Shown: one piece after another, positions 24,001-30,000 of the stretch | Layout: each line of letters opens with the position of its first letter | How positions within the stretch are numbered: the stretch's first letter is position 1 | IMG/VR virus record: IMGVR_UViG_648028025_000008 | DNA from: a virus | Lineage: Duplodnaviria; Heunggongvirae; Uroviricota; Caudoviricetes | Length of the DNA: 33,448 nucleotides | Reading direction: 5' to 3' (one strand) | Position numbers: made by a program

Positions 24001-27000
24001 CTGAAACGGAACTAGGTATCTCTAATGCCATTTGGGTAACATTGAATAAACCAAACATATCCAATGTTTTTTTCCTATGGATCCTTCTTCAAGGTGAGGA
24101 GCTATATATTCGTCTAGCCCTGAGAGCAGACCTTTATCTTTTATCAAGCTCAGTAGAGCTGTTGTTTCACCGCATTCCGGTGCATGTTGCTGTATATCAT
24201 CTGGAATATTAACAACAAATCCAGCTTGGCATCCTAGAGGTAATTCGGATTGCGGTATTTGTGTAGAGGGTATTTGTTCTGTTTGATGATGTTGATTGTT
24301 TTGTGAGGTGATTCCAGATTGTATGGTCGGTTGAATGTTCATAATAAATCCTTATTACATGTTTATATCCATTAATAATATCAATCCATTGATATTATTA
24401 GTGTCACATATCCGATGTGGACAGCTTTAATATATAACTGTTTGAATGCTTGATTGATGTGACTTAGATCTCAAAATTAAGTTGTTAAATTTACCAGTTT
24501 ATCGCTTGAACACTTAAAATAAATTATAAATGTTTCTGTTATTGTTTTTATAGTTTAAATTATTGTTGGTTGTATAAGCTGATTACATTTTTACTCTAAG
24601 TGTTATAAATATTTTATACTGATATTAGTCTTATTATATATTTTTTTAATGAAAATGAGCATAAAACTAAGACATATAATGCTTGGCAGCTTTATGCTCT
24701 TCTGATTGGCTGTATGTTTGATGACAAAAAATTAGCGCAAGAGGACAAAAAATCACCTTGCGCTAATGCTCTGTCTCAGGTCACTAATCACATCTAACTC
24801 ATTGATTAATTGTGACTCTAAATGTAGTGTTTTGTCGCGTTTTGCAGTCTATCATTTAATCAATTGTATAAATAACATAATGATTTTTAATGTGTTTTTG
24901 TGATTTTATCCTCCTTCTGACATGGAAGTTGTTCGTTCAAAATCTTATTAAATATCAAGTTGTTAAATCTGGTAAGTCATTATTGGTCAAAATAAAATCA
25001 TTATCCGATTTCAATTTTGTCCCACTCCCGCCCGCGACTGTCCCTATAATGCGCCGCCATTGAATCAGATTTATGTCCAAGAAGACGTTGTGCAAACTTG
25101 TAGCCAATCTGGTTCCGATATAGCCTCGCGGACAGACTACGTAGTTCATGAAATGTCGGTGGGTCTCCATCAAACGAGATCCCGGATGCATTTCGCGCCT
25201 TTGTTAAATACCGTGATACTGTGGCTGGAGAAAGTGGTTCGTGATAGGTTGATGCGATTATTGTTTCACTGCTGCTGGCCTCCCTGCATTTCTGTAGTGT
25301 ATCAACCAGTGAGATGTCGAGTGCGTCAATGGTTAGAGCCAGCGGAATGGCAATTTTGGCTCCTGTTTTACTCTGTCCAATGTGAAGATGACCATCGTTT
25401 ATGTCTGACCACTTCATTCTGCACAAATCGCCCACTCTCTGCCCTGTAACGACAGCTAAATCCATTGACAGCCTCAGCCAGATGGGGAGGTGCTCAGCAG
25501 CATGGTAAATAGCGACATACTCATTAGCTGTCAGCCTTGAGCGCCTTACTTCTGACTTTGCTGCACGGGTTGTTGTTACTGGATTCGTTGCCACATGCCC
25601 CTCGGCTATTGCCCCTCGAAAAACGTCAACAAGGGTTGACCTGATTACTCTTGCGGAAACCGCTTTACCTTCTGCGACGTAGGTGTTTAGCATTGCTGCC
25701 ACCTCTTTCGTTGATATGTCAGTGAGCGGTTTGTCCGGCAATTTTCTTCGAATTGCCCTGATTTTGCTGGCGTAGTCGAGTAATGTTTTCGGCTTGCTCC
25801 CCCTCTAGCTGAGGATTGTTTCATATCGATCAAGCCACGTATGAAGAGTGATTGAGTCAGTGCCTTTAACCCTGTCCAGCAATGATTCGTGCCCACTTTC
25901 GCTGAAAAGCTCAATGTTGGTGTGAATGCTTCTGAAATTGCTACTCTTCTGTCTCTTCCCAGCCCGAACTCTTTTTTCGTCCTCGGGTCAGTGTGTAGTA
26001 AGACCGCTGCAAATCCTGCGTGCTGACGGGAAGTGGGAAAATATTGGCGAAATGAAGTAACCCGATAGCTTCACAAAAACCGGAGTCCGGCTCCGGTTTT
26101 TGTTGTCATGTATGGGGGATGTCTGTTAGGAATAATTAGATAGGTTTATTTTGAAGGTTGAAATGTATGTTATCGCCCTCTTCTATAAATTTGGGATGTT
26201 CATGGAATTCTTTAACCAGAAACCTGACTTCGCCTGATAATCGTGTTTTATCCTCTGTAAGGGATGCTGCTGTTCACTCTGATAGCGGGACGCAAGTAAC
26301 GGTTGGCAACAGAACATATCGTGTTGTGGTCACTGATAATAAGTTTTGCGTTACAAGAGAAAGTCATAGTGGTTGTTTTACTAATCTGTTGCACAGGTTG
26401 GGATGGCCTAAGGGAGAGATTAGCAGAAAAATTGAGGCTATGCTGAATACATCGCCAGTGAGCACGACTATAGAAAGAGGCTCTGTTCATTCGAACAGAC
26501 CTGATTTACCTCCAGTGGATTATGCGCAGCCGGAGTTACCTCCAGCGGATTATACTCAATCAGAGTTGCCGAGGGTTAGCAACAATAAATCACCCGTGCC
26601 AGGTAATGTTATTGGTAAAGGTGGTAATGCTGTCGTGTATGAAGATATGGAAGATACAACAAAAGTGTTGAAGATGTTTACTATATCTCAAAGCCATGAA
26701 GAGGTGACAAGCGAAGTTCGTTGTTTCAATCAGTATTATGGTTCCGGGAGTGCAGAGAAAATATATAATGATAATGGAAATGTTATTGGTATTAGAATGA
26801 ATAAAATAAATGGGGAATCTCTTTTGGATATTCCATCATTACCAGCACAAGCTGAACAGGCTATTTACGATATGTTTGACAGACTGGAGAAAAAAGGAAT
26901 TCTTTTTGTTGATACAACAGAAACAAATGTTTTATATGATCGTATGAGAAATGAATTTAATCCAATAGATATATCATCTTATAATGTTTCTGATATTTCA

Positions 27001-30000
27001 TGGAGTGAACATCAAGTCATGCAATCTTATCACGGAGGAAAGCTGGATCTTATTAGTGTAGTATTAAGTAAGATATAATATTTTTATCCAGATATATTAG
27101 TTGCAATAATATTTATGGATTTATTTGTTAAGGGGGTTTTGATATGTTACCAACAAGTGGTTCTTCAGCAAATCTTTATTCATGGATGTATGTATCAGGA
27201 AGAGGTAACCCTTCGACTCCGGAATCAGTAAGTGAGCTTAATCATAATCACTTTCTTTCTCCTGAATTACAAGATAAACTTGATGTTATGGTCTCTATAT
27301 ATTCATGTGCCAGAAATAATAATGAGCTTGAGGAAATTTTTCAAGAGCTAAGTGCTTTTGTAAGTGGGCTGATGGATAAGAGAAATAGTGTATTTGAGGT
27401 GAGAAATGAAAATACTGATGAGGTTGTCGGAGCGCTGAGGGCGGGAATGACGATAGAGGACAGGGATAGTTATATCAGGGATCTTTTTTTTCTGCATTCA
27501 TTGAAAGTAAAAATTGAGGAAAGTAGACAAGGCAAAGAAGATTCGAAATGTAAAGTTTATAATCTGCTATGTCCGCATCACTCTTCAGAGCTATATGGTG
27601 ATCTACGAGCAATGAAATGCCTCGTGGAAGGATGCAGTGATGATTTTAATCCTTTTGATATTATTAGGGTACCAGATCTTACTTACAACAAAGGATCTTT
27701 ACAATGTGGATGATTAGAGGCCTGTGAGCCTGTTTAGGATTCTGTGTAAATGCCTTTTCTTAAAAGTGACCGTCAAGACGGTCACCAAACTCGATAATAA
27801 AGCGGCTCATTGCCATTCGCCAGTCCCTTAACGGCATTGTCCATTTCTGTGACGCGGCCTGGATTGCCAGCCACACCACTTTTTTTACTGACTCGTCCGT
27901 CGGGAACACCTTGCGTTTCCTGATGGCATGCCGGATCACACTGTTCAGCGACTCGATGGCGTTCGTTGTGTAGATCACTTTGCGGATATCTGCCGGATAA
28001 GCGAAAAACGTCGCCAAGTTAGTCCAGTTTGACAGCTAGCACCGGCTTATCTGCGGATAGCGGCAGTCCCAGGCCGCAGCAAACGCTTCCAGTGCCTGCT
28101 GGCCTGCCTCTTCTGTGGGAGGCTAATCGCTTTCAGGTCGCGAGTGACGGCTTTGTATTCCTTCCATGACACGAAGCGCATGCTGTTGCGCACCATATGC
28201 ACGATGCATAACTGGATGCGGGCCTCCGGGAATTCTTTCAGGCCATACACACAGGCGATGAGGATATCGTTCAGACCGCGGTTTTTCAGTTCAGTCAGCA
28301 CATTGAACCAGAAATTCGCCCCTTCATTTTCGGCCAGCCGCATCCCCAGGAGCTCTTTCTGACCTGCGATATTGATGCCCAGTGCTAGGAACATTTTTAT
28401 GATAAAAAATTAGTGCAAGAAGACAAAGAATCGCCTTGCGCTAATGCTCTGAAACAGGTCACTAATATCATCTAAATAGTTGACTCATAGTGACAGCATG
28501 TGTTGTGTCTTGCAGTATTATATAGCCTATTATTTAGATTGAAGCCATCATAATCTATTGATGTTAATGGTTTTTTATTGTTTGTTGTTCGGCTTTTTAT
28601 ACTAATTTGAGCGAAACAAAAAGATAAAAAGTTGTTTTTCGTGTCTTTAAGTGATACCAGATGGTATTGCGCTAAATGTACCAATGGGTATACCAAGAGC
28701 ACTAAAAACAAAGGGGCAACCACTTTGTAACCCCTTGATTATTTGCAGAAGCGCAGAAAATCGAACTCTGGAACCCTTTCGGGGCATCCTTTTTCAAGAA
28801 TGAAGAAAAAAATAACTAAAAAATCAAGTTGTTAGGAAGTTATTCATGGCTAGTGTACCAACTCTTTTCTGGGCTAATAGCTATGATTTGTTTGTATTAT
28901 TTGTCTCTGTCTCTATTATTTTTGACATCCATGCGACTTCTGATATTGATAATCTCAGTTGTGGAGTTCTGTCTGCGCTTCCGGGAGGACGCATATCAAA
29001 ACTACAGGATCTTCTGTTAAACACTGTAAAGCCATCTACATTGCATGTTGTTGAGTCTAAGATACAATTTTTAGTAGATGATTTATCTGCTATAGGCCTA
29101 GATATTTCAGGTTGATGCCAAGTGTGTCCTGAAAAAATACTTTTTATTGAAAATGGCATTTTTATCCTCACATTATGTCTTTCTCTTATAGTGCAATTTA
29201 ATGTATTTAGAAACATTAAACTATGAATCTAAAAAGGCTACGCAGAGTACTGTTACACTTTAACAAATCATATTTACCACTCTGGAAATGGGATGGCTGG
29301 TTCATAAAATAATGAGTCTTTTTCAACGGTTGTTACATTGGTGTACTGATGATTATGCCTTGTCGCTAAGAGCTACCATAACCGTACAGCGTGATTCATC
29401 CATGGCGAATAAATCGACTGATAAATCCCCCTGAGTTTCAGCTCTTGCTGTTGGACCTTGCCCGTTTCGCTATGGAACGCGTACCAGCTAGAGAATATTA
29501 TTCGTTCTCCTCCAATGTTACGCAAGTTTTGTAAACGGTAACCAATCGTGATTAGTCCTGCATGTAACGGACATCAAGCTGTCTGGTTGATTTTTATTGC
29601 CAGCAGTTCGAGAGAGCAGACAACTGCGTCCGATGGAAAAATGGGCACGACAGGGTATTCAGGCAACCTCGCTGAGGAGGCTTATGGTACAGATTGTAAT
29701 GTGAAGTATAAAACGTTAAAAATTCCATTTTAGAAACTAAATAGCTGTAATATAAGTTCGATCTAATCTACTATTTTGACAGACAGATTGTATCAAGAAT
29801 TAGGGAGTATGAAATAGATGGCAATAACTAGTAAAATTAATTTTGCAACATTTAAATCGAACCATACAGTCAAATTCTAGTGCATATATTTTGTGTGGCT
29901 AATATGCAAAAATATTGTTCTATTAGATTAAAATGGCATTCATCTTTGCTGACAATCATTTCCGGAACAAAGGGTTCACGGCTGAGAGGGTGTGGAGCGT

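Follow-up and report, generated by a model that had tools for sequence, protein, structure and literature searches.

Introduction

In bacteriophage lambda, the P arm, the core and the P' arm of the attachment site attP assemble Int, IHF and Xis into an intasome for integration and excision. A hairpin lies downstream of int, across attP, and acts on the int-sense strand as tI, the terminator of the pI transcript. When antiterminated transcription from pL reads through this hairpin, the stem is extended to an RNase III site, and cleavage destroys the int mRNA, a control known as sib retroregulation. For this control PMC5300877 cites Schindler and Echols (1981). Here we analyse a diverged repeat in a 33,448-nucleotide (nt) stretch of Caudoviricetes DNA (IMG/VR record IMGVR_UViG_648028025_000008), referred to as the window. 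A repeat search placed its two copies at 24717-24858 (copy A), upstream of the type III effector gene nleA, and at 28395-28536 (copy B), next to the remnant of an insertion sequence (IS). The comparisons presented below make it very probable that both copies consist of the sib/tI retroregulator and the att P arm of lambda/HK022-family phages, and that they come from two independent phages.

The window is 100% identical to positions 1,738,134-1,771,581 of Escherichia coli E2865 (NZ_AP018808). It is a defective lambdoid prophage integrated at ompW, the counterpart of OI-71/CP-933P in O157:H7 EDL933, where the layout is the same as in the window. The name 'PPompW' has been given to this prophage (Nakamura et al. 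2021, PMC8112680).

Several described systems resemble the two copies. Copy A is like the sib, attP and int region of phage HK022 (X51962; NC_002166), with 79-86% nucleotide identity, 82% amino acid identity in Int, and the same order, spacing and overlap of the int stop codon with P'3. The HK022 core region AGGTGAA, however, is replaced in copy A by TGACATGGAAG, the int gene of copy A is a pseudogene, and copy A lies, undivided into attL and attR, within another prophage. Copy B is like the lambda P arm, tI/sib and attR (J02459 27535-27742), sharing sib, P1, H1, P2, X1, X2, H2 and the core, and running on into the bio-side B' TTGAGCGAAAC. It differs from lambda in being only about 81-84% identical over the arm, which makes it the most divergent member of the set compared, in having a core T-run one T short, a mismatched sib stem and a host flank of only about 65 bp at 83% identity, and in its place within the ompW prophage and not at the chromosomal lambda attB. 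A phage-borne P arm, core, B' and ybhB-side bacterial DNA forming an internal attR junction are also found in the lambda-bio phage DN1 (MF374379), but DN1 carries a bio locus of about 10 kb at E. coli identity, whereas copy B has a diverged flank of about 65-80 bp and no ybhB or bio genes.

Finally, three host-derived attachment sites, attB-in-PP_1 to _3, have been described in the exchangeable effector locus of the PPompW family (Nakamura et al. 2021, PMC8112680). With 81-87% identity to att regions of the E. coli chromosome, these short segments were read as having been taken up from the chromosome of E. coli or of relatives; the flank of copy B, at 83% identity to the lambda attB region, is similar in this respect. 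They are nevertheless complete attB sites (yecE, ykgJ/ecpE, ompW) that still accept phages, whereas copy B has the arrangement P-O-B' and lacks a B arm. We considered whether copy B might be a complete host-derived B-O-B' attB and rejected this, because only O-B' and the flank are of that kind and the left side is a phage P arm. PMC8112680 makes no mention of ybhC, ybhB, sib or an internal attP. The 21-bp attB-in-PP_1 given there is absent from the window; according to the same paper it lies about 428 bp before attR, past the window end.

Results

The two copies are direct repeats 3678 bp apart and align without gaps at 77% identity in the repeat search. The similarity is significant by blastn against the whole window (142 nt, 76.8%, E 2e-26). 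A preliminary description of this DNA had given ATGA(C/T)AAAAAATTAG(C/T)GCAAG as the beginning of both copies, and we find it at 24721 and at 28399; a degenerate 47-nt core pattern matched copies A and B only, with 0 matches expected in shuffled sequences. The repeat is thus real, but the length of 180 bp first assigned to it is too great. In copy A coordinates, identity is 89% over the hairpin (24721-24774), 73% over 24775-24818 (44 nt), 65% over 24819-24858 (40 nt) and 48% over 24859-24900. Since these last 40 nt or so are essentially non-homologous in that register, the homologous block comes to about 140 nt. Such a decay from left to right is expected if the block is sib plus a P arm, because sib and the arm sites are common to the whole family while the core-ward sequence varies with specificity.

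The minus-strand hairpin, which had been described as terminator-like, corresponds to the tI/sib of the lambda family, strong in copy A and weakened in copy B. Folding of the minus-strand RNA of copy A in a 79-nt context predicts a 12-bp stem with a lower extension and, after the stem, UUUUUU (-29.8 kcal/mol, z -5.5). The extended stem is formed as in lambda and HK022 (-25.6 and -28.1 kcal/mol, respectively), and the hairpin stands 227-278 nt past the int stop. In copy B the stem contains a C.A mismatch and the extension is lost (-15.8 kcal/mol, z -1.55). RNA folding was used here because a simple terminator scan did not call the sib hairpin, whose loop is above the limit of the scan. No Rfam family was found over either copy when the whole window was searched at the gathering threshold and 24300-28900 at E<=1.

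Searches of a phage collection with either copy returned the int-att regions of lambdoid phages, including HK022, HK97, lambda and mEp235. The features annotated under these matches are a 'sib transcription processing site' (190-239) and an 'attP site' in HK022 (X51962), a 'sib retroregulation site' and an 'attachment site core' in HK97, three Int-binding sites (int 1 to int 3) and the recombination core in lambda (J02459), and an 'attR site' beside a 'transduced bio-locus' in DN1. According to a six-way alignment and a site-by-site mapping onto lambda, both copies carry the sib/P-arm elements in lambda order and with lambda spacing. The names of the sub-sites were transferred by alignment from the lambda attP map, since of these sites the lambda record itself annotates the core and int 1-3 only, with 'int 1' and 'int 2' lying over P1 and P2.

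The sib/tI hairpin of copy A (24723-24774, minus strand) agrees with lambda 27535-27585 at 50 of 51 positions and aligns with the sib of HK022 and HK97; that of copy B (28401-28452, minus strand), although degraded and weakened in its fold, still agrees at 47 of 51. The P arms follow on the plus strand at 24778-24885 in copy A and 28456-28563 in copy B. Within them the Int arm site P1 (24778-24787 and 28456-28465) is identical to that of lambda in both copies (10/10), and the inverted arm site P2 (24809-24818 and 28487-28496) matches at 8/10 in copy A and 9/10 in copy B. The IHF sites H1 (24795-24807 and 28473-28485) and H2 (24873-24885 and 28551-28563) each score 10/13 in copy A and 11/13 in copy B. 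Of the Xis sites, which together occupy 24820-24855 and 28498-28533, X1 scores 12/14 in both copies, and X2 scores 11/18 in copy A and 14/18 in copy B. The predicted arm-type Int sites, P1 and P2 in both copies and also P'1-P'3 in copy A, fit the C/AAGTCACTAT-type consensus with a lambda-like spacing. On every criterion that can be examined in sequence, the two copies belong to the lambda/HK022 sib-attP family.

Beyond the P arm the two copies differ in kind. Copy A has all the predicted parts of a complete, unrecombined attP, with P arm, core and P' arm, adjoining a decayed HK022-like int. Its core region (24910-24931, plus strand) contains the 11-bp common core TGACATGGAAG at 24918-24928, with the inverted half-sites CTTC/GAAG on either side of TGACATG. 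The P' arm (24953-25004, plus strand) comprises H' at 24953-24965, which matches lambda at 11/13, and P'1-P'3 at 24974-25004, which match at 8/10, 8/10 and 10/10; the motif GTCAAAATAAAATCATTAT of this arm occurs a single time in the window. As in lambda, the int stop codon overlaps P'3. The int pseudogene itself (25001-25995, minus strand; tblastn, Pfam and RefSeq) is of the HK022/lambda type. By tblastn it is 82% identical in amino acids to residues 29-355 of HK022 Int and 67% identical to lambda Int. It has lost its first 25 residues or so, shifts frame near residue 55 and is interrupted by a stop codon at residue 89; it matches the Pfam Phage_integrase profile at 1.9e-38, and RefSeq describes it as frameshifted, incomplete and with an internal stop. 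Because an intact attP is present within the prophage, the phage DNA of copy A would not have entered through its own att site.

The specificity of copy A could be read from prophages of O111 strains. In O111 RM9322, the order nleA, sib, P arm leads to CTCCTTC and the core TGACATGGAAG, after which comes yfaT (a DUF1175 gene), as in an attR. In O111:H8 TW05614 the counterpart attL is seen, yfaT leading to the same core, followed by the P' arm and intact int-xis. The homology between the window and O111 changes arms exactly at the core, which is common to this attL/attR pair at yfaT; the Int of the O111 yfaT prophage is WP_000533670.1. The core of copy A is accordingly, as far as sequence can tell, that of yfaT-integrating phages. 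Since it differs from the HK022 core, this specificity would not be the torT-side site seen in strain LF82.

Copy B is, by the same kind of comparison, a decayed attR of lambda specificity, made of a P arm, a core that lacks one T and a bio-side flank. By blastn it is 80.6% identical to lambda 27529-27742. A lambda-type core one T short, CGGCTTTTTATACTAA, the B' sequence TTTGAGCGAAAC and about 65 bp resembling the bio-side flank occupy 28590-28672 (plus strand), and 28594-28672 aligns with the ybhC-ybhB intergenic region of K-12 (locus 2332-2418) at 83% identity with one 8-nt gap (E 3e-22). The core and flank also align with the annotated attR/bio junction of DN1. The P' sites score 3-5/10 against lambda, and there is no neighbouring int, in keeping with an attR; with a P arm only, copy B is attR-like and not an attP. 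The homology to the attB flank of Escherichia and Shigella invariably ends at 28672. Searches of genome contigs gave no match for a donor of the DNA to the right of this point, and with the diverged attB flank they gave only Escherichia/Shigella attB regions together with chance matches or matches to contaminated metagenome-assembled genomes. To the right of the flank, 28673-29216 lacks homology to the attB region of E. coli; it contains open reading frames (ORFs) without Pfam match at 28846-29115 (plus strand) and 28881-29216 (minus strand), the latter annotated as the hypothetical protein WP_001303943.1. In O157:H7 (EDL933 and many others), ISEc8, of the IS66 family, interrupts the attB-like flank of copy B at about 28641; the window does not have this insertion.

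On its left, copy B starts exactly where the transposase fragment of an IS256-family (IS1414-like) remnant ends (28394/28395), as had been noted. The remnant (about 27722-28394, minus strand; Pfam and IS1414 homology) matches the Pfam Transposase_mut profile (379 positions) at 184-379 only, and its homology to full IS1414 copies runs from about 27722-27726 to 28393, starting about 10 nt past the nleF stop. The suggestion that an IS inserted beside the block is half right: its intact end lies about 10 bp past nleF. Having landed just downstream of that gene, the element later lost its other, N-terminal half to a deletion reaching the edge of the sib U-run. Within the remnant, some RefSeq annotations of the identical sequence call an ORF at 28091-28229 'EAST1 family heat-stable enterotoxin' (astA-like).

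The region that holds the two copies has a modular appearance. A second direct repeat, 21921-22059 and 25989-26128 (92-94% identical), opens each of two effector modules; it comprises the last 70 nt or so of a tail-fibre C-terminal gene and a strong plus-strand terminator (AAAACCGGAGTCCGGCTCCGGTTTTT). The first module reads as tail-fibre end and terminator, nleG', nleA, sib, attP and int'. Here the tail-fibre C-terminal gene ends at about 21992 (plus strand, from the annotation and the Pfam gene order), the nleG-like pseudogene nleG' occupies 22137-22679 (plus strand), and nleA, the att-proximal cargo, is annotated by RefSeq as frameshifted at 23018-24342 (minus strand). The second module reads as a tail-fibre end lacking its beginning and a terminator, nleH, nleF, IS remnant, sib, attR and B' flank. 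Its tail-fibre fragment (25989-26060, plus strand; 25989-26128 with the terminator) is called 'phage tail fiber C-terminal domain' with missing N-terminus in RefSeq and is fused to the truncated int; the cargo genes nleH1-2 (26167-27078) and nleF (27144-27713), both on the plus strand, are taken from the RefSeq annotation of the identical E2865 region. Further right lie nleG (29870-30517, minus strand) and espM1 (30701-31291, plus strand).

Some further observations concern this neighbourhood. At 24066-24074 (minus strand) nleA has A7 in place of the A8 run of EDL933, and this 1-nt deletion near 24074 splits the gene into ORFs 24022-24342 and 23018-24064; RefSeq treats the E2865 gene likewise as frameshifted. 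The gene may truly be a pseudogene, or the homopolymer may have been misread in sequencing. At about 20150-21992 (E2865 1,758,486-1,760,125), the annotation places an antirepressor gene and the tail-fibre C-terminal gene almost directly after the lysis genes, from which it follows that the entire head and tail morphogenesis region has been deleted, in agreement with the status of PPompW as a defective prophage. A 54-nt direct repeat (80% identity) links 29556-29609 with 32202-32255; as the second copy falls within an annotated IS630-family pseudogene, the first may be a further IS630 relic downstream of nleG. Elsewhere in the window, matches at the Rfam gathering level were the DicF small RNA (4537-4588, minus strand), the sok antitoxin RNA beside hokD (11705-11854, plus strand), STnc100 (16157-16329, plus strand) and two tRNA genes downstream of Q (15138-15210 and 15304-15377, plus strand).

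Discussion

We then asked whether the block could be something other than sib and a P arm. The preliminary description had seen in it a conserved regulatory block upstream of effector genes, beside which an IS had later inserted, and the relation to nleA on which this idea draws does exist. The block stands upstream of nleA, at a distance of about 380 nt, in the window and in all nleA prophages examined, among them those of RM9322, whose end abuts yfaT, of Z1323CEC0013, whose end abuts ibs/yegL, and of RM9467-C1. The entire 658-bp region upstream of nleA is covered at >=80% in 516 genomes, including nleA prophages at other chromosomal sites. Moreover, this region and sib are 95-100% identical among nleA phages of O111, O145 and chicken isolates, even where the remaining P arm is only 69-80% identical and the cores differ. 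However, of 5426 complete E. coli genomes, 2066 carry the 142-nt block, which has 3549 occurrences in all and a best match that is mostly only 80-90% identical; it coincides with annotated sib/attP, and the cases sampled away from effectors are ordinary prophage ends. In LF82, for example, it lies next to torT at the end of a P22-like prophage with an HK022-type core, and in strain 81 next to ybhB/bioA at a prophage end with a lambda core, in both cases in an effector-free neighbourhood. Copy B, for its part, is upstream of no effector, being situated beyond the 3' end of nleF and the IS remnant, and pattern and blastn searches of the window gave no copy for nleH, the nleG genes or espM1. The hairpin also has the wrong orientation for a part of the nleA promoter, as it terminates transcription heading toward nleA, and copy A is simply the left part of an attP that runs into the int pseudogene. 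The block precedes nleA because nleA is the last cargo gene before att in those phages, and the conservation of the nleA upstream region and sib next to a diverged P arm points to recombination breakpoints within the P arm. An effector-upstream regulatory block is thus left without support, and we hold it to be very improbable.

A recent segmental duplication within the prophage, followed by divergence, would also give two direct repeats, and the tail-fibre/terminator repeats nearby are similarly spaced (about 4068 bp apart, against 3678 bp for the copies). Yet identity between copies A and B is no more than 74-77%, against 92-94% for the tail-fibre repeats that flank them. In a comparison of nine sequences they were the least similar pair of all (73.6%), copy A being nearer to the O111 yfaT arm (95.7%), the LF82 arm (90.7%) and HK022 (86.3%), and copy B nearest to lambda (84.2%). 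As each copy has far closer counterparts among the att arms of other phages than in its partner, they represent independent lineages and not a duplication made in situ. The cores agree with this, TGACATGGAAG in copy A being wholly different from the lambda core GCTTTTTATACTAA, and so do the neighbours, P' and int after copy A and bacterial B' DNA after copy B; we see hardly any chance for a duplication. A strong hairpin followed by a U-run is, on the other hand, typical of the 3' end of a small RNA, and the contact of copy B with an IS fragment might suggest the terminus of a mobile element, such as a miniature inverted-repeat transposable element or an IS end tied to the IS256-family remnant. 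Against the small RNA stand the absence of any Rfam match in 24300-28900 and promoter-like matches on the minus strand that are weak and fewer than in shuffled sequences (8 versus 13.3 expected); in the literature, searched by locus tag, no small RNA is reported for the spacer between nleA and int'. Against the mobile element, copy A has no adjacent IS and the IS1414 homology ends at 28393; since the IS at copy B is truncated at that very junction, the block cannot be its terminus. Either of these origins is most unlikely.

The assignment of both copies to sib and the P arm therefore stands well ahead in our judgement, but some observations weigh against it or against the history that goes with it. 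The site names are mapped by alignment, and in copy A the sites X2 (11/18) and H2 (10/13) and the core (13/21) have diverged from lambda. The ybhC-side B arm, whose presence would point to an occupied attB within the prophage, was looked for in the window and its right flank, and none was found. The left edge of copy B falls within about 5 nt of the point where HK022/HK97 homology begins, which would be a natural module boundary as well as the end of a deletion. Among the sampled matches, a donor prophage with nleH-nleF directly beside a lambda attR (at ybhB and free of IS) was absent.

How might such an arrangement have arisen? We propose that the att-proximal cargo regions of two lambdoid phages were joined in series into one exchangeable effector locus. 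The joining would have occurred by homologous or illegitimate recombination with another lambdoid genome and not by Int, and a later deletion would have joined int' to the tail-fibre fragment that follows, at about 25989-25995. For the host flank of copy B, two routes may be considered. It may stem from an aberrant excision of the lambda-bio kind, or from integration into a host-derived attB borne by a prophage, the left junction having been lost later. Chromosome-derived attB sites in prophages are a phenomenon described for three other sites (PMC8112680).

The two att sites are probably inert for recombination in cis, given the dead int and the damaged core of copy B. Retroregulation by sib has no target here, as int is dead. 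The predicted tI of copy A is intact and, at a point about 380 nt upstream of nleA, most likely continues to block leftward read-through. We speculate, while thinking it rather unlikely, that the sib/P-arm patch acts as a homology linker, allowing lambdoid phages that differ in their integrases to exchange att-proximal effector cassettes such as nleA, and that, separately, the intact orphan attP (24775-25005) serves as a substrate in trans for an Int of the yfaT type. The linker idea draws on the nleA upstream region and sib being 99-100% identical across phages that differ in their cores and keep only 69-80% identity in the P arm. If the orphan attP were live in trans, Int-driven rearrangements or prophage-in-prophage events at the effector locus could be expected, a class beyond the attB-in-PP sites already described.

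The sib/att block is in itself an ordinary element of a known kind, and the fossil reading of the locus is a small addition to the known picture. What looked like an effector regulatory repeat appears to be a textbook phage integration element, and it is not one to pursue as a virulence regulator. Its two fossils would nonetheless date and orient the cassettes of the exchangeable effector locus of OI-71/PPompW. Module 1 (nleG'-nleA) would come from a yfaT-type phage whose phage-form attP was kept, and module 2 (nleH-nleF) from a phage of the lambda-attB type of which an attR with captured host DNA was kept. Altogether, the locus lends small support to the published picture in which phage ends are stacked and chromosomal att sequences captured as effector loci grow.

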